Shown here in pieces: positions 5,673 to 14,217 of a stretch of 64,000 nucleotides of DNA. Under the pieces are notes generated by a model. That model did no database searches and had not been told where the DNA came from. It saw nothing but the letters and a program-made list of their open reading frames with translations. Made by a program: the position numbers and the translations under genes. The stretch comes from an uncultured Alphaproteobacteria bacterium (GTDB taxonomy: Bacteria; Pseudomonadota; Alphaproteobacteria; RF32; CAG-239): NCBI GenBank assembly GCA_934254915.1, contig CAKQMH010000007.1:2422-66421 (forward strand), given 5' to 3'. The number at the start of each line of letters is the position of its first letter. Within the stretch, counting starts at the first letter, position 1.

Positions 5673-7100
5673 ATGACTACACGTACTCGTTTTGCTCCCA
5701 GTCCCACGGGATATATGCATATCGGCAACTTACGCACGGCTTTGTATGAATATTTGATTGCCAAAGCCGCCAATGGTCAGTTTTTGCTGCGAATTGAAGA
5801 TACTGACCAAAAGCGTTATGTTGAGGGCGCAACCGACATTATTTATAATACCTTGAAAACCGTCGGTATGAATTGGGACGAAGGTCCTGATATCGGCGGA
5901 AATTATGGTCCGTATATCCAGTCTGAGCGCAAACCGTTATATGCCGAATACGCTCATAAGTTGGTCGAATTGGGCGGCGCGCATTATTGTTTCTGCTCCA
6001 AGAGCGAAGCTGATGAGGAGAAAAACGAGGAGCTTAATATCAAATTTAAAGATCCTTGCAAAATGTTGTCATTGGAGGAGGCTAAGGCGCGCGTAGCTGC
6101 CGGAGAACCGTATGTCATTCGTCAAACGATTAATAAAAAAGGAAAGTCCAAATATCATGACGAAGTTTATGGCGATATTGAGATTGACTATGACGAACTT
6201 GACGAAGGTGTACTGCTCAAATCTGATGGTTTCCCGACGTATAACTTTGCCAACGTGGTCGATGACCATTTGATGAACATTACCCATGTTGTCCGCGGCA
6301 ATGAATATATTTCTTCAACCCCGAAATATAACCTGATTTATGAAGATTTCGGTTGGGAGCATCCGCACTATGTTCACGTTCCGCCGGTTATGAAAGATGC
6401 CCAGCATAAACTTAGCAAACGTAACGGCGATGCCTCTTTTCAGGACTTGGTGGCTAAAGGCTACTTGCCGGAAGCGATTATTAATTATATTGCATTGTTA
6501 GGTTGGAATCCCGGCAATGATGAAGAAATTTTCAGTCTTGAGGATTTGAAAAAAATCTTTACCGTTGAACGTCTGAACCGTTCACCGGCGATTTTTGATA
6601 TCACCAAACTAACTTGGATGAATGGCGTGTATTTACGAGCCTTGCCGGCTGAAAAATTCCATGAATTGGCTTTGCCATATTATCATAATATGCCGTCATT
6701 TGTTGATACTAAAGCCCTGAGCGCAACTTTGCAGCCGCGTGTTGAAACTTTGGGCGATATTCCTGCTCAAACAGACTTTATTTGTGAGCTTCCGGATTAT
6801 GCTTTGGATTTGTACAGCAACAAAAAGATGAAAACCGATGCTGCTGTTGCCCGTCAAAATTTGCCGGCAATCCGTGAAACCTTATCTTTACAGTCGGAAT
6901 GGAACAATCAGGCTTTGTTTGAAACACTTAAAGCCTTAGCTGAAAAATTAGGTGTTAAAAACGGACAAATTCTCTATCCTGCCCGTATTGCTTTGAGCGG
7001 TAAGGAAACCACCCCCGGCGGTGCTACGGAAATAGCCGTAATTTTAGGCAAAAACGAAACATTACGCCGTATTGATGAGGCCATAAAAAAATTAGCTTAG
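5673..7100 (+). CDS. gltX: Glutamate--tRNA ligase
   Basis: Class I aaRS motifs HIGN (HIGH) and KLSKR (KMSKS), in a 475-aa protein with GltX-like architecture. Confidence 0.9.
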   Translation: MTTRTRFAPSPTGYMHIGNLRTALYEYLIAKAANGQFLLRIEDTDQKRYVEGATDIIYNTLKTVGMNWDEGPDIGGNYGPYIQSERKPLYAEYAHKLVELGGAHYCFCSKSEADEEKNEELNIKFKDPCKMLSLEEAKARVAAGEPYVIRQTINKKGKSKYHDEVYGDIEIDYDELDEGVLLKSDGFPTYNFANVVDDHLMNITHVVRGNEYISSTPKYNLIYEDFGWEHPHYVHVPPVMKDAQHKLSKRNGDASFQDLVAKGYLPEAIINYIALLGWNPGNDEEIFSLEDLKKIFTVERLNRSPAIFDITKLTWMNGVYLRALPAEKFHELALPYYHNMPSFVDTKALSATLQPRVETLGDIPAQTDFICELPDYALDLYSNKKMKTDAAVARQNLPAIRETLSLQSEWNNQALFETLKALAEKLGVKNGQILYPARIALSGKETTPGGATEIAVILGKNETLRRIDEAIKKLA

Positions 7101-7123
7101 AGCAGTTTGGATAAAACAACATA

Positions 7124-7152
7124 AAAACTCCGCTGTCTAAGCGGAGTTTTTT
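7124..7152 (+). terminator. Rho-independent terminator after gltX
   Basis: Stem AACTCCGC / GCGGAGTT with a TGTCTAA loop, followed by a T6 run. Confidence 0.7.
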
Positions 7153-7163
7153 GCATTAAGTAC

Positions 7164-7192
7164 TTGAAATATGTTGTTATGTAGTGTAATAT
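7164..7192 (+). promoter_or_regulatory. Putative sigma-70 promoter (-35 TTGAAA 7164-7169, 17-nt spacer, -10 TAATAT 7187-7192) for the 7220 gene
   Basis: Hexamers read directly. The promoter lies between the gltX terminator and the next start codon. Confidence 0.4.
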
Positions 7193-7219
7193 AATTTAGA
7201 CAAAAAATAAGAGAGTGTC

Positions 7220-8947
7220 ATGAATAACAACCTTGTTGACATTGAAAATCAGTCGGCTGACCATTTCGATTTGGGCGTGTCTTTCCCGATGGGCGAAGGC
7301 GACTATAACAAAACTCGTGAACAAATTAATGCTGAGCAGCACGAGAAGGATGCCGCATGCCTGGAAATTATCCGTGAGGCCGTTACTAATGATGAAACCG
7401 GTGAAGAATATACTTTTGAAAATATCACCGAAGAGGCGGTCAGGTGCGGTAAAATTGATCGTGATTATGCTCGGGTTTTGCGTTTTTATTACACCGACGG
7501 TATGGAAACTTATCGCGAGGCTTTCTTCTCAATTGCCGATATGTTGGGTATCAAAAAGAATATCAAAATCATTGATCCTGCAACCGGCAAAACTAAGGTT
7601 GATGATGCTCGTCTCGGCCAAATCACGCCTAACAACTGTGCGGTTTTGGAATATATTGACCGTCTGGAATACGAGAGCCAGACTTTTGGTCGCGGTCGGT
7701 TGCGTCATCGCGATTTTTCCGATGTTCCGGAATCATTGAATCCGGTTTTTCTGACTATGCCGGGACTGAAGAGTATAACCCGCACTCTTGCCAAATATGA
7801 AAAATATTTTAGCAAATATCAGAGTGATAAAAATAAAATTTCTGCTCGTTACAGTGTTGGTTCATCAGCTTATGAAGCCGCCGTCAAAAAACTGCATAAG
7901 CCTGCTGAATCTATAAGTGACATTGCCCGTTGCTCAATTAGTGTCAAACGGTTGCAAAATGTGCGTATGTGGGCTGACTTTTTTGCTGATTCGCCGGATA
8001 TCAAAATCGACAAGAGCAAAACCAAAGATAAATTTTGCGCCAATGATGTTCGCAATGCCGATAAGTTTACGGAAAACAATTTCCGTAACTATGTTTTCTT
8101 TGCCGAACTGCCCAGCGGACTGCGGATGGAAATTCAAATCAAAATTACCGCTCTTGATGAGATTGATAAACTGACGCACCCTCTTTATGAACAGTTGCGT
8201 GATCTGAAAAGAAAAGTCAAGCATATCAAAGAGGTTAAAGAAAAATTACAGACGGAAATGGAGATTCATAAACTTGAATACGCGATTAAAGGCATTTATC
8301 GCTTAGGTATTGAAAAACACAATCAGAACGAAGTTTTTGATAAAGTTTATCGCGTTGAAGAGCAAAATCGTATTTCCGGTCATAGCCAGACTAACGAATT
8401 CGGACTTGATATTGATGCCGTGCAAATTTTGGAACGCAACTTTTTAGCACGTCCCAAGCAGGCTTTTGTCCGCGAAAATCCGATTATCAATGTTCCGCGC
8501 AGCGTTAAGCGGGAATATATTGCTTATCGCCGTAATCCTGATAATCCGGATATTTCGCCGACCATGAAGACCTTGTACCAAATCTATGACAACTCGCCCT
8601 ATCTGCAAAAGTTGCTACGCGATTGTCCTGAGCATCTCCGCTGCACTATTCATCGTTATCTGCCGTATATTACTTCCCACTACCGTGGCTGGATTAACGG
8701 GCAGGAAGGAAAAGACGTGCTGAAAAGGGATGATTATTTTGCTGCTCGCTCTGAAGAGGAATATCATCGTTTGCAGGAAGTTGACCGCCGTCATATGAAC
8801 CTTGAACCGCTGACGGAGGATGAACCTTTACCGGATTATGATATTGCAAAATATGCAAAAAGAACAAAATCTTTGCCAAAAGTTAAGAAAAATGGATTAT
8901 CATTAACCCAAATGATACGTAAAAAACAAGGCAGTATGAGAAAATAG
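7220..8947 (+). CDS. Hypothetical cytoplasmic protein, 575 aa, with a putative Rel/Spo-like nucleotidyltransferase core
   Basis: No signal peptide. Three motifs appear in the order and approximate spacing of the RelA/SpoT synthetase domain: GLKSITRTLAKYEK (cf. GRxKxxYSIYRKMQRK), SDIARCSISV (cf. DxxGxRIIV) and MEIQIKIT (cf. EVQIRT). Confidence 0.55.
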   Translation: MNNNLVDIENQSADHFDLGVSFPMGEGDYNKTREQINAEQHEKDAACLEIIREAVTNDETGEEYTFENITEEAVRCGKIDRDYARVLRFYYTDGMETYREAFFSIADMLGIKKNIKIIDPATGKTKVDDARLGQITPNNCAVLEYIDRLEYESQTFGRGRLRHRDFSDVPESLNPVFLTMPGLKSITRTLAKYEKYFSKYQSDKNKISARYSVGSSAYEAAVKKLHKPAESISDIARCSISVKRLQNVRMWADFFADSPDIKIDKSKTKDKFCANDVRNADKFTENNFRNYVFFAELPSGLRMEIQIKITALDEIDKLTHPLYEQLRDLKRKVKHIKEVKEKLQTEMEIHKLEYAIKGIYRLGIEKHNQNEVFDKVYRVEEQNRISGHSQTNEFGLDIDAVQILERNFLARPKQAFVRENPIINVPRSVKREYIAYRRNPDNPDISPTMKTLYQIYDNSPYLQKLLRDCPEHLRCTIHRYLPYITSHYRGWINGQEGKDVLKRDDYFAARSEEEYHRLQEVDRRHMNLEPLTEDEPLPDYDIAKYAKRTKSLPKVKKNGLSLTQMIRKKQGSMRK

Positions 8948-10027
8948 ATGAAAAAAATCTGGCTCTTATCTTTTGCTATCGCGTTACCGGCATTGGCACA
9001 GGCGGCTGATGACAGCGGTGTTATCTCGCTTTTTGACGGTACTGCGGCTGAGGAAGTAAAACCTAAACCACAGGATGACGGTGAAAGTATTTTTTCTTTT
9101 CTGAACTTCAAAAATTGGAGTAAGGAAAAGCCCAAACTTTCGGTTTCCGAACAATCTAAGCTCTCATCGCTGGAGCAGACAACAATTTTGGCTGATAAAG
9201 GTGATGTCAACGCTCAGCTGGCATTGGGCTATATCTATCTTTATGGTGATAACGGGGTTGAACCTGATTATGACAAGTCATTTGAATATTATGCCAAAGC
9301 CGCCATGCAAAATGATTCGGTTGGGCTGAATAATCTCGGCAGTTTATATTACAGTGGTATCGGTATCAAGCGTAACACGGCTAAAGCTGCAGTGTTGTTT
9401 GAAAAAGCGGCTAAATTAGGCAATGCGGAAGCTGCCGTTAATTTAGGCTTTATCCTTATAACCGGCAACGGCGTGGAAAAAAATCCGTCTTTGGCAATGG
9501 AGTTCTTTCAACAAGCGGCCGACGCCAAAAATCCGACGGCACAGTTTATGGTCGGTTACGCGCGTTACAAGGGCGGTTTGCTCGATAAGGATTATCTTAA
9601 AGCCGCCACATTAATAAAATCGGCAGCTGCCGCAAATTTTGATGAAGCGCAATATACGTTAGCGCTTATGTATATTAATGGTTTGGGGATGCCGCAAAAC
9701 TATGGTAATGCCGTTAAATATTTAAAACTGGCTGTATCTCAAGGCAATGTCGAAGCCATGATGACATTAGGTGATATTTTGGCTCGCGGTGAAAAATATA
9801 CCAAAGACTTGTTTACTGCTCACGTGATGTTCAACCTGGCGGCCGTTCGCGGAGCGGAAGGGGCTGCTGCCAAACGTGATGTTATTGAGAGTAGAATGAA
9901 GATTGACGAAGTCTTAAGTGCGCAAGAGCAAGCTGAGCGCTTTAATCCCAAACCATCCGAACTGACATTGTACATTCGTCAAACGTTTGGCACTAATGTT
10001 CGCAGCTATATTGACAACGCCAATTAA
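8948..10027 (+). CDS. Secreted Sel1-repeat (TPR-like) protein
   Basis: Sec signal MKKIWLLSFAIALPALAQA. At least 6 Sel1-type repeats are visible (LALGYIYLYGDNGVEPDYDKSFEYYAKAA, LGSLYYSGIGIKRNTAKAAVLFEKAA, and others). Its ATG directly abuts the upstream TAG (TAGATG). Confidence 0.8.
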   Translation: MKKIWLLSFAIALPALAQAADDSGVISLFDGTAAEEVKPKPQDDGESIFSFLNFKNWSKEKPKLSVSEQSKLSSLEQTTILADKGDVNAQLALGYIYLYGDNGVEPDYDKSFEYYAKAAMQNDSVGLNNLGSLYYSGIGIKRNTAKAAVLFEKAAKLGNAEAAVNLGFILITGNGVEKNPSLAMEFFQQAADAKNPTAQFMVGYARYKGGLLDKDYLKAATLIKSAAAANFDEAQYTLALMYINGLGMPQNYGNAVKYLKLAVSQGNVEAMMTLGDILARGEKYTKDLFTAHVMFNLAAVRGAEGAAAKRDVIESRMKIDEVLSAQEQAERFNPKPSELTLYIRQTFGTNVRSYIDNAN

Positions 10028-10054
10028 ATAAATTTGTAATTTTCGAGTTACAAA

Positions 10055-10085
10055 AAATCCCTTTGATTTGCTGTCAAAGGGATTT
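10055..10085. terminator. Hairpin terminator shared by the convergent Sel1 gene and accC
   Basis: AAATCCCTTTGA / TCAAAGGGATTT 12-bp perfect stem. The T-run is on the minus-strand side. Confidence 0.6.
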
Positions 10086-10091
10086 TCATTA

Positions 10092-11444
10092 CTACAATTG
10101 CTGTGATTTTTTGGTCATAAACTTTTCCAACCAGTGAATGTTATATTGCCCGTCAATAAATTCGGCTTGCGATATAATTTCCTGATGCAAGGGAATAGTG
10201 GTTTTGACACCTTCAATCACAAATTCTTCCAAAGCGCGGCGCAGTCTCATCAAGGCCGCATTTCGGGTTTTGCCGCTGACAATAAGTTTGGCAATCATAC
10301 TGTCATAAAACGGCGGAATGCTGTAACCGGAGTAGATTTCCGAGTCAACACGCACGCCCAAACCGCCGGGTGCATGCCATTCGGTAATTTTTCCGGGGCA
10401 GGGAGCAAAAGTTTCCGGATCTTCCGCATTAATACGGCATTCAATAGCATGACCGCTGAAGGTGATGTCATCTTGGGTATAACCCAAGGCTGCGCCGCTG
10501 GCAATGCGGATTTGTTCCCGTACGATATCAATTCCCGTAACGGCTTCGGTAATCGGGTGTTCTACTTGCAGACGAGTATTCATTTCCATAAAATAGAAGC
10601 GTCCGTCTTCATACAAAAATTCCAGTGTTCCGGCGCTGGTATAACCGATTTTTTCAATAGCTTTGCGTACAATTTCGCCGATTTCGTGGCGCTGTTGCGC
10701 ATTCAGAGCCGGTGATGGAGTTTCCTCAATCACTTTTTGGTTATTACGTTGGATTGAACAGTCGCGTTCGCCCAAGTGGACGACATGGCCATATTTATCA
10801 GCCAGCACTTGCATTTCAATATGACGCGGTTTTTGCAGATATTTTTCCATATAAACCACATCACTGGTGAAAGCGGCTTTAGCTTCGACTTTAGCCATGG
10901 TGAAAGCTTCACGCATTTCATCGTCGTTAAAGGCGATTTTCATGCCTTTTCCGCCGCCGCCTGCTGTTGCCTTAACAATAACCGGATAACCGATTTTGTT
11001 AGCCCACTCAATGGCGTGTTCAACACTTTCCAAAGCCGGTGAACCGGGGGTAACCGGCAAACCTGCTTCTGCGGCTACTTTGCGAGCGGTGATTTTGTCG
11101 CCCATCAAACGCATTTGTTCGGCGGTAGGGCCGATGAACGTTATTCCGTGTTCCTCAACCATTTCGGCAAAGTCGGCATTTTCCGACAAGAAGCCGAAAC
11201 CGGGGTGAATGGCATCAGCGCCAGTGATTAAGGCCGCCGAAATAATTGCCGATTTATTTAAATAAGAGTCGGTCGAACGAGCCGGACCGATACAAACGGC
11301 TTCATCAGCCAGGCGTACATGCATGGCATTGGCATCGGCTTCCGAGTGAACGGCCACGGTTTTGATACCCATTTCCCGGCAGGCGCGATGAATACGCAAT
11401 GCAACTTCGCCACGATTGGCAATTAAAACTTTTTCAAACATCAT
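10092..11444 (-). CDS. accC: Acetyl-CoA carboxylase biotin carboxylase subunit
   Basis: 450 aa with a classic ATP-grasp biotin carboxylase sequence (MMFEKVLIANRGEVALRI...EMNTRLQVEHPITE). Confidence 0.95.
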   Translation of the reverse strand: MMFEKVLIANRGEVALRIHRACREMGIKTVAVHSEADANAMHVRLADEAVCIGPARSTDSYLNKSAIISAALITGADAIHPGFGFLSENADFAEMVEEHGITFIGPTAEQMRLMGDKITARKVAAEAGLPVTPGSPALESVEHAIEWANKIGYPVIVKATAGGGGKGMKIAFNDDEMREAFTMAKVEAKAAFTSDVVYMEKYLQKPRHIEMQVLADKYGHVVHLGERDCSIQRNNQKVIEETPSPALNAQQRHEIGEIVRKAIEKIGYTSAGTLEFLYEDGRFYFMEMNTRLQVEHPITEAVTGIDIVREQIRIASGAALGYTQDDITFSGHAIECRINAEDPETFAPCPGKITEWHAPGGLGVRVDSEIYSGYSIPPFYDSMIAKLIVSGKTRNAALMRLRRALEEFVIEGVKTTIPLHQEIISQAEFIDGQYNIHWLEKFMTKKSQQL

Positions 11445-11463: not shown

Positions 11464-11949
11464 TTATTCAATAACAACCAAGGGTTCACCATATTCAACC
11501 GGATCGCCGCCTTCAACCAAAATTTTAGTTACCGTACCGGATTTGTGAGCTTTAACCGGATTAAATGTTTTCATAGCCTCAATCAGGCAAACGATGTCGC
11601 CTTCTTTTACGCTGTCTCCGACTTTAACATAGTTCGGGGTATTGGGATCAGCCGCCAGATAAACTACGCCGACCATTGGTGATTTGACGGCATTGGGGCT
11701 GTTGGTATAATCCTCATCGGCAACTGCAGTTGCAACCGGAGCTGCGGGTGCAATCGTTGCCGCGGCAGGTGCCGGAGCGGCGACAGTTTGCATAACCGGA
11801 GCTGCAGCCATTTGAACCGGAGCGCCGGTCAAACCTTTAGATAAACTGATGCGGCAGCCTTCGTCTTCGTATTCCAACTCATTAAGATTGCTTTTTTCAA
11901 GGATTTCAGCCAATTTGGCAATGACTTTAGTGTCAATGGGATTAGACAT
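11464..11949 (-). CDS. accB: Acetyl-CoA carboxylase biotin carboxyl carrier protein
   Basis: Ala/Pro-rich linker and a C-terminal biotinyl domain with EAMKTFN (the AMKM-type lysine motif). Directly upstream of accC. Confidence 0.9.
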   Translation of the reverse strand: MSNPIDTKVIAKLAEILEKSNLNELEYEDEGCRISLSKGLTGAPVQMAAAPVMQTVAAPAPAAATIAPAAPVATAVADEDYTNSPNAVKSPMVGVVYLAADPNTPNYVKVGDSVKEGDIVCLIEAMKTFNPVKAHKSGTVTKILVEGGDPVEYGEPLVVIE

Positions 11950-12273: not shown

Positions 12274-14217
12274 ATGGAAGTAAAAGATGTAAATAATAAT
12301 TTGAATCAATTGCTGTTCAAGAATACGGCAGTTAATTCTTCAACCCAAGCTTTGGGCGCAGGGTTTGCGTCGTTGTTAGGGCAAACTACAATGGCTTTAG
12401 ATATTGTGTCCGGTGACAAATCGGTAGATGTTAAAGCTGATGTCTCATCCGACAGCGTTAAGAAACCAGACAGCAAAAAAACGGTGGCTGATGCGTCAAA
12501 GAAAACAACAAAGTCAGATGCCGCTAAGGATGGTAAAAACAGTAAAAATGTTGCCGCTAAAACTGCGGACAAGAAAGTCGCTGATAAGCCGACAACTAAA
12601 AAAACAAAGGTAACAGATGATAGCGCTTCAGTCCAGATGTCCGTTTCGCAGCCTGAACAACAAGTAATGCAAGAATCTGCGCCGGTTGCAGACGGCAATG
12701 CGGCCGCTGCTGTTGTCGATGATGCCGCTGTTGCTGATGTTGCTGTCGAAGTTGTAGCCGATGTTGTTGTGGAAGCGGACGCTTTACCGGCTGATGTTGA
12801 AATGCTTCCGGTTGCAAATGCAGAAATGTTACCGGAGACATCTCTTGAGCAAACGAATAATTCAGAATTACAGGCTCTTGTCGCAACCGATCAGGTGCAA
12901 ACTATTGTGGCCGACAGCAATTTGGTGATCAAAACCGCTGATAATCAAGAAATGCCGCTCGCTGATTTTGCTGCTGAACCTGAAAAATTGCAGGATTTGG
13001 GCGAAATTAAGGTTGTCAATCCGGATACCGGTGCGGCGGTAAATGTTGACGGGCAAGAGTTGTATGTTCAATTACAGGCTTATGTCGATGCTCCGGCTCA
13101 GGCGGAAAAAATTGCCGCTGTTATGCCTGAAGCGGTTGATAAGGTTAATGCCGAAGCTGCTGAAAATGTTGCTGCTCCGGTTGTGGCTGAAGTTGCCGAT
13201 GCTCCGATTGAAAACGTAAGCAAAGATGAAAAAACAACTGATACACAGGTTAAAAACACCAAACCGCAAATGGCTAAAGTTGTTTCTGATACCAAGGCTT
13301 ATACTGATGATGTTTTGGCTGTCCAAGCCGCCCAACTGGATGAGGTTTTGCCTGATGATGTCAAGGCTAAAGTCGCTGTTGATGTTAAAGAGGAAAAAAT
13401 TGCCTACACGGCATCTTCTTCTGATTTGATAAAAGATAAATTAACTTTGGAAGAGGCTTTGCAAGCAGTTGCCGACGCCGGACAGGATGTTAATCAGACA
13501 ACGCTTAGTGATACAGAAAGTCAGATTTCATCGACCAATTCACAGTCCAATGTTAATTCGGAAGTTAAAACTACTGCTAATGCTATGCCGGCCGCGGCTC
13601 AGGCTGTTGTTGCTGCGGTTGAAAATACCGAGGCTGTAACTTCATCTGCCACAATCAGCGGTGTCAGCGAAATCGGTTCAGCCTCAATGGCTCATACCGC
13701 TACGGCCGCTGCCGCCAACAGCAGTGAGTTTGTAAATCAGGCTAGAGCTGAAAATGCCAAAACCGCCGACACTTCTTTTCGCGATGTCTTAAAAGGTATG
13801 GAAAAAGAAGTTGTCGAACAGGTGAAAGTAAATATTACCAAATCAGCGGTTAAAGGCGTTGATAAAATCAATATCCAACTTAAACCGGAAGATTTAGGAC
13901 ATATTGAAGTTAAGATGCAAATTTCTAAAGATGGTAAATTGCAGGCTCATATTATTGCCAGCCGTCCGGAAACATTGGAAGTTTTGCAAAAAGAAATTCA
14001 AAATTTGGAACGGGCGTTTAATGAAGCCGGTTTCCAGACTGATGCCGACAGTTTAAGTTTTAGTTTCCAAGGTGGAAACCAAGCCGGACAGGAAAGCAAT
14101 TCCGAACTCCGCAGCTTTATCGGCAATATTTTCGAGCATGAAGCCCAAGAAGAAATCGCCGGCAATGATAATTTACAAAATTGGACACCTGCACAGGGTC
14201 TTAATATCCGCGTTTAG
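12274..14217 (+). CDS. fliK: Flagellar hook-length control protein FliK-like
   Basis: 647 aa. Ala/Val/Asp/Lys-rich low-complexity N-terminal two thirds. C-terminal Flg_hook-like segment INIQLKPEDLGHIEVKMQISKDGKLQAHIIASRPETLEVL. Directly upstream of flgD and flgE. Confidence 0.6.
   Translation: MEVKDVNNNLNQLLFKNTAVNSSTQALGAGFASLLGQTTMALDIVSGDKSVDVKADVSSDSVKKPDSKKTVADASKKTTKSDAAKDGKNSKNVAAKTADKKVADKPTTKKTKVTDDSASVQMSVSQPEQQVMQESAPVADGNAAAAVVDDAAVADVAVEVVADVVVEADALPADVEMLPVANAEMLPETSLEQTNNSELQALVATDQVQTIVADSNLVIKTADNQEMPLADFAAEPEKLQDLGEIKVVNPDTGAAVNVDGQELYVQLQAYVDAPAQAEKIAAVMPEAVDKVNAEAAENVAAPVVAEVADAPIENVSKDEKTTDTQVKNTKPQMAKVVSDTKAYTDDVLAVQAAQLDEVLPDDVKAKVAVDVKEEKIAYTASSSDLIKDKLTLEEALQAVADAGQDVNQTTLSDTESQISSTNSQSNVNSEVKTTANAMPAAAQAVVAAVENTEAVTSSATISGVSEIGSASMAHTATAAAANSSEFVNQARAENAKTADTSFRDVLKGMEKEVVEQVKVNITKSAVKGVDKINIQLKPEDLGHIEVKMQISKDGKLQAHIIASRPETLEVLQKEIQNLERAFNEAGFQTDADSLSFSFQGGNQAGQESNSELRSFIGNIFEHEAQEEIAGNDNLQNWTPAQGLNIRV

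Follow-up and report, generated by a model that had tools for sequence, protein, structure and literature searches.

A two-gene unit from an uncultured alphaproteobacterium pairs a probable RelA/SpoT (RSH) enzyme, gene A, with an exported Sel1-repeat protein, gene B. Profile-profile comparison and searches with a predicted structure both support a distant relationship, not recognised before, between gene A and the alarmone-making RelA/SpoT enzymes. The reading that we prefer, to which we give an even chance, is that the divergent RSH enzyme and the exported Sel1 protein form an accessory module of the flagellar region. Bacterial stress signalling relies centrally on RSH enzymes, whose known roles have recently been extended to (p)ppApp toxins, tRNA pyrophosphokinases and exported synthetases. 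To our knowledge, all of these were found with RSH sequence profiles. Such profiles do not detect the family of gene A, although its constellation of catalytic residues is retained, and the family therefore represents a superfamily branch that surveys to date must have missed. An exported Sel1 scaffold is an unprecedented conserved partner for a protein of the RSH fold, and the unit has a recurrent place beside flagellin genes.

In the window, which is the whole 64,000-nucleotide stretch of DNA that was analysed, genes A and B are flanked upstream by gltX (5673..7100; tRNA-synt_1c, E 4e-94) and downstream by the convergent genes accC (10092..11444) and accB (11464..11949). The features of the unit are:

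7123..7151, no strand assigned: hairpin and T-run closing gltX, with a 12-bp stem (-17.6 kcal/mol, z -6.2), providing upstream insulation of A-B.
7164..7192, + strand: candidate sigma70-like promoter, TTGAAA-17-TAATAT, with a 9/12 match to the consensus.
7198..7210, + strand: conserved leader motif AGACAAAAAATAA, family consensus (A/G)GACAAAATAA, directly past the -10 element.
7220..8947, + strand: gene A, an open reading frame for a predicted soluble, divergent RelA/SpoT-fold protein of 575 aa.
8948..10027, + strand: gene B, an open reading frame for a periplasmic or secreted Sel1-repeat protein of 359 aa.
10054..10087, no strand assigned: hairpin common to the convergent gene B and accC, a candidate bidirectional terminator by folding energy.

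The downstream hairpin has a folding energy of -18.9 kcal/mol (z -6.0) on the + strand and -17.4 kcal/mol (z -5.3) on the - strand; a simple terminator scan called only the hairpin at 7123-7151. Orthologous loci have hairpins equivalent to the latter behind the gene upstream of A, which is often flagellin. The promoter candidate is weak alone, and TTG[AC]AA-N17-TAnAnT is present at the equivalent position in most orthologous loci. Together, the hairpin energies and the retained promoter site bear out the cassette of terminator, promoter, two genes and terminator that an earlier note on this DNA had described between gltX and accBC. The exact 10-mer GACAAAATAA occurs three times in approximately 1.6 kb of gene A leaders, as compared to a single occurrence when both strands of approximately 420 kb of other sequence are counted, and near-variants are found in five further gene A leaders. 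The motif was not found in flagellin leaders. A common 5' leader that would give shared regulation of A and flagellin was ruled out, given that the leader sequences differ.

The absence of a signal peptide from gene A, as first described, is confirmed by a maximum 19-residue hydropathy of 0.74, with a KD value of -0.69 for the first 19 residues, and there is no transmembrane segment. The protein can be divided as follows:

7220..7294, + strand: aa 1-25, a predicted disordered N-terminus (pLDDT <50) with the clade-invariant motif F16 D17 x x V20 S21 F22 P23.
7307..7729, + strand: aa 30-170, an acidic N-terminal alpha/beta region (pI 4.7) without family assignment.
7730..8224, + strand: aa 171-335, the predicted RSH-type synthetase core (pI 9.6).
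8225..8695, + strand: aa 336-492, a long helix and helical C-terminal domain, with clade-invariant GIEKHNQ and NFLxRP.
8696..8944, + strand: aa 493-575, a variable, basic, low-confidence tail.

Large extra N- and C-terminal regions had been proposed for gene A, and its conserved extra domains indeed amount to approximately 400 aa. In the predicted structure, a helix pair of 75 residues is one of these additions, and another is a new helical domain at the C-terminal side, for which no resemblance to known folds was found. Searches of Pfam, NCBIfam, PADLOC and PHROGs with gene A gave nothing meaningful, and matches to DUF6965 (E 0.007) and RelE (E 0.5) fell below the cut-offs and were judged to be chance. 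Pfam RelA_SpoT (PF04607) does not match gene A at E up to 10, and Pfam searches over 40 family members gave neither a RelA_SpoT match at E up to 0.01 nor an anchoring domain. Neither the protein nor the family profile found an RSH match among PDB sequences; the only matches, to a splicing helicase and to a helical protein designed de novo (E 0.004 or worse), were rejected as helical or low-complexity noise.

The relationship to RSH synthetases is suggested by an AlphaFold2 model with a pTM of 0.75 and pLDDT >85 across most of aa 40-490. RSH synthetases rank first in two structure searches with this model. By Foldseek, every one of the top 36 matches is an RSH synthetase. Their probabilities reach 1.00, with modest E-values (approximately 2e-3) and TM-scores to targets of 0.4-0.5. 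The mixed sheet with flanking helices that defines the synthetase domain of RelQ, RelP and Rel is predicted in gene A as well. Alignment by hhalign of the family core to RelQ and EcRelA gives 90.9% probability (P 1.1e-6). The same comparison does not exceed 1.5% with any of 20 column-shuffled templates, and the reversed template scores 0.2%. The alignment pairs D234 with RelQ D72, the sequence NFRN with GYRS, EIQIK with EIQIR and H320 with H154, and further pairs E304 with E139, Q306 with Q141, K308 with R143 and Y/F288 with Y116. In terms of the RSH motifs, D234 would be the Mg-binding Asp of DxxGxR, N287-F288-R289-N290 the G-loop GYRS and E304-Q306-K308 the EIQIR motif, with H320/Y323 also equivalent, and K184/R188/K192 would stand for an RxKxxxSxxxK-like motif. 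K184 and K192 pair with RelQ K48 and K56 in an alignment of the first motif that is not significant alone (E 0.5) and has the expected register. The earlier note had read three motifs in RSH order; the second and third align to RSH motifs well above shuffled controls, but the first does not do so by itself. The broader proposal, that gene A is related to the Rel/Spo nucleotidyltransferases, withstood both the shuffled controls and the profile search, in the form of profile-profile comparison.

The three motifs coincide with invariant columns of the family (P181 G182 K184 R188 K192; D234 R237 S239; E304 Q306 K308), and their residues rank near the top in conservation across 40 divergent members (16-62% identity). 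K184 is kept in 37 of these, K192 and Y323 in 38 each, and R188, D234, R237, E304 and H320 in 39 each; Q306 is found in 33, K308 in 32 and an aromatic residue at 288 in 34. In FaRel2, the Mg-coordinating Asp and the acceptor-stacking Tyr are essential, and both are highly conserved among SAS enzymes (bioRxiv 10.1101/2021.04.30.441581).

The predicted active site of gene A lacks two arginines of RelQ. The positions of RelQ R46 and R77 are occupied by G182 and S/T239, and R188 and R237 are new and invariant. We take R46 and R77 to be the canonical ATP-site arginines of RSH enzymes. Therefore, donor binding must differ in detail, or R188 and R237 compensate. The two replacements would also fit a repurposed, inactive RSH fold whose pocket serves as a nucleotide sensor or scaffold, for instance in regulating flagellin synthesis or the export of B. 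Such a role would agree with the large non-catalytic additions and with the failure of every RSH profile to recognise gene A, and it would provide a clear case of the fold being repurposed as sensor or scaffold. We consider it improbable, however, given that conservation across the family is highest at the metal-binding Asp/Glu, the Gln, the stacking aromatic residue and three basic residues. As judged from sequence, such a pattern would be typical of a catalyst and not of a protein that only binds its ligand.

If gene A is active, it would be a soluble cytoplasmic enzyme whose central domain has a deeply divergent RSH synthetase fold. ATP-Mg would be bound via Asp234, Glu304 and Gln306 together with the basic residues K184, R188, K192 and R237, as in other RSH synthetases, and the acceptor base would be stacked on the conserved Tyr or Phe at 288. 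Transfer of pyrophosphate to the 3'-OH of the acceptor would then yield an alarmone-type nucleotide or, less probably, a tRNA pyrophosphorylated at its 3' end. Regulation or targeting of the enzyme is presumably the task of two family-specific additions, the acidic N-terminal region and the new helical domain at the C-terminal side.

Gene B encodes five Sel1 repeats (Pfam PF08238, E 1.3e-42, 143 bits against a cut-off of 30.7) and matches Sel1 proteins of the PDB with E down to 8e-60. Three features of the gene were mapped:

8948..9004, + strand: signal peptide (MKKIWLLSFAIALPALAQA | AD), with the hydropathy maximum at residues 4-22 and the cleavage site inferred by the AxA rule.
9086..9109, + strand: linker motif SIFSFLNF, family pattern [GS][ILF]FSF[LM][ND]F, in a linker that is otherwise charged and variable.
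9209..9937, approximate limits, + strand: Sel1 repeat array, from Pfam matches starting at residue 88 and PDB Sel1 matches.

A signal peptide is present in all 16 orthologues of gene B inspected, and the Pfam score and this conservation agree with its first description as a signal-peptide Sel1-repeat protein. The SIFSFLNF-type motif is kept in 15 of the 16, including the orthologue of locus L030, which lacks gene A. MotX of the Vibrio T-ring and ExoR, the regulator of ExoS/ChvI in Rhizobiales, are likewise periplasmic Sel1 proteins of similar size class, both linked to motility, and gene B lies in a flagellar or flagellin neighbourhood. The NCBIfam matches to MotX (E 1e-12, 47.9 bits against a cut-off of 330) and ExoR (E 4e-9, 36.2 bits against 450) are far under the equivalog cut-offs. 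Therefore, gene B is not an orthologue of either, and it differs from both by its own conserved FSFLNF linker motif.

The pairing of the two genes is conserved. In 15 of 16 distinct loci the next gene after A encodes a Sel1 protein with a signal peptide, and this holds down to approximately 20% identity, such that the co-conservation anticipated for the pair was found. The other genes that flank A vary, and include gltX, SH3, flagellin, MlaC and Ala racemase. In the window, the TAG stop codon of A (8945-8947) abuts the ATG start codon of B (8948-8950) with a gap of zero nucleotides, which confirms the TAGATG junction reported earlier. Translational coupling, as also claimed, may be taken literally in the window and in some other loci, but elsewhere it may not, as the gap between A and B ranges from -4 (an overlap) to about +40 nucleotides.

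The dependence of the two genes is one-sided, in that A almost never occurs without B and B exists without A. Locus L030 has the order FlbT-flagellin-B-accC-accB-FliK-FlgD-FlgE, with gene B in the same flagellar synteny and no A, and L028 also carries B without A; a profile search of six-frame translations of both loci found no gene A. An obligate two-way pair was therefore ruled out. Orthologues of gene B make up no fewer than 120 clusters (50% identity or more), as compared to 11 clusters for gene A, and across orthologues it is the more conserved protein (46-68% identity, against 34-64% for A).

That B functions elsewhere without A would suit a simpler proposal, in which A is a stand-alone housekeeping alarmone synthetase, a divergent SAS-like (p)ppGpp or (p)ppApp stress enzyme for which the Sel1 and flagellin adjacency is meaningless and promoter sharing with B is incidental. 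The RSH fold and conserved active site, the chromosomal and core-like neighbourhood with native GC, and a sigma70-type promoter of its own with a leader different from that of flagellin are all consistent with this proposal. Nevertheless, it appears rather unlikely to us. Gene B stays directly after A in 15 of 16 loci despite changing flanks, which is hard to explain by inertia alone, and the conserved extra domains of A are not found in housekeeping SAS enzymes. Compared to RelQ/SAS1 and RelP/SAS2 (PDB 5dec, 6ewz, 6fgk), gene A is only 15-20% identical, is undetected by Pfam RelA_SpoT and has 575 aa rather than approximately 210. Unlike these enzymes, it has the acidic N-terminal region, the very long helix pair, the novel C-terminal helical domain and a conserved Sel1 operon partner.

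A two-gene operon with tight spacing and an RSH-fold first gene also resembles a toxSAS-type toxin-antitoxin or toxin-immunity pair, in which A would be a growth-arresting RSH toxin that is neutralised by B. Structure comparison places toxSAS and CapRel proteins close to A, and the A-less copies of B could be read as orphan immunity genes. This reading is unlikely, to the point that we give it hardly any weight. The Sec signal on every B orthologue would export B away from a cytoplasmic, ATP-dependent toxin, and B is larger than typical antitoxins and more conserved than A, the opposite of fast-evolving immunity proteins. In contrast to toxSAS and fused CapRel systems (FaRel, FaRel2, PhRel, CapRel SJ46; PDB 7ztb), gene A has no adjacent cytoplasmic antitoxin gene, its sole conserved neighbour being the Sec-exported Sel1 protein, and its C-terminal domain is unlike known folds. 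It also differs in context, which is chromosomal, of stable synteny and without signs of phage, plasmid or defence islands; no PADLOC, PHROG, plasmid or phage match was obtained for A, and its GC content equals that of its flanks. Recent horizontal acquisition or a mobile element was ruled out on the same evidence. The earlier note had seen no described toxin-antitoxin or alarmone arrangement in the pair, and two surveys of toxSAS and exported synthetases hold nothing similar.

The flagellar neighbourhood was absent from the earlier note. A flagellin gene lies directly upstream of A in six loci (L003, L005, L011, L014, L018, L027), and 10 of the 16 loci with A have no adjacent flagellin. In the window, a cluster of FliK-FlgD-FlgE-FliF-FliG-FliN-FlhA-FlhF begins at 12274, 2.2 kb downstream, and tblastn found no flagellin gene within the 64 kb. 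Judged by gene position, A may serve the flagellar region as an accessory of a new kind that acts by nucleotide signalling. All of the genomes belong to one broad clade, so some of the synteny may be inherited rather than selected; A-B also has its own promoter candidate and a leader unlike that of flagellin. A literature search found no connection among RSH, Sel1 and flagellin. The Azospirillum RpoE6 paper, with a Sel1 gene and flagellin, concerns an unrelated cluster.

Proximity to flagellin in six loci, and to flagellar export genes in the window, raises the prospect that A is itself a secreted effector. Without a Sec signal, it would leave by a route such as the nearby flagellar type III apparatus and act outside or in another cell, with B assisting or guarding in the periplasm. 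The disordered first 25 residues, with the FDxxVSFP motif at aa 16-23, are as would be expected of a docking or export signal. Early flagellar substrates carry the gate-recognition pattern FxxxPhi, and F16-x-x-x-V20 of gene A presumably fits it. The motif, however, is invariant only in the close clade and is not conserved in distant members, and A is large and stably folded. Exported RSH enzymes are tied to many secretion systems, including T3SS, T6SS and T7SS (PMC12691689), and gene A, if secreted, would resemble the exported alarmone synthetases of these systems. Those enzymes (SaEAS 8vx3, Tas1/Apk1 6ox6; PMC12691689) were all found by RSH sequence profiles, to which A is invisible. By hydropathy and Pfam, A has no Sec signal or recognised secretion-targeting domain, including WXG/LXG, XopAD, MuF, DUF4157 and Rhs/PAAR. 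Toxic exported synthetases without a Sec signal normally have an adjacent cytoplasmic immunity gene (PMC12691689), which A lacks. Export of A as an effector is thus very doubtful. A related possibility, also quite improbable, is that the RSH-fold enzyme A departs from the classical pattern in its acceptor or its destination, being either exported by the flagellar type III system via its FDxxVSFP N-terminus or acting by pyrophosphorylation or nucleotidylation of a flagellar component or tRNA in a flagellum-linked checkpoint, with B as the envelope half either way. If so, no earlier member of the RSH family would have had such a functional connection to the flagellum.

In the preferred reading, a flagellum-region accessory module, the A-B operon would be transcribed from its own sigma70-type promoter, and B, a Sec-exported Sel1-repeat scaffold, would be the older and more widespread partner, resident in the flagellin or flagellar neighbourhood of these Alphaproteobacteria. 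Gene A would be an accessory gene that provides a cytoplasmic nucleotide signal or modification for the same process that B serves in the periplasm. Should A prove active, knowing what it makes and how it relates to B could bring to light a novel signal or modification, based on nucleotides and tied to motility or the envelope.

The family of gene A is rare and chromosomal, with 59 representatives among 1.84 billion proteins. An earlier association of Sel1 proteins with Legionella and amoeba symbionts found no support for this unit: the relatives are all from uncultured Alphaproteobacteria, several of them from human gut metagenomes. A scan of metagenome loci with a narrow family alignment added three loci.

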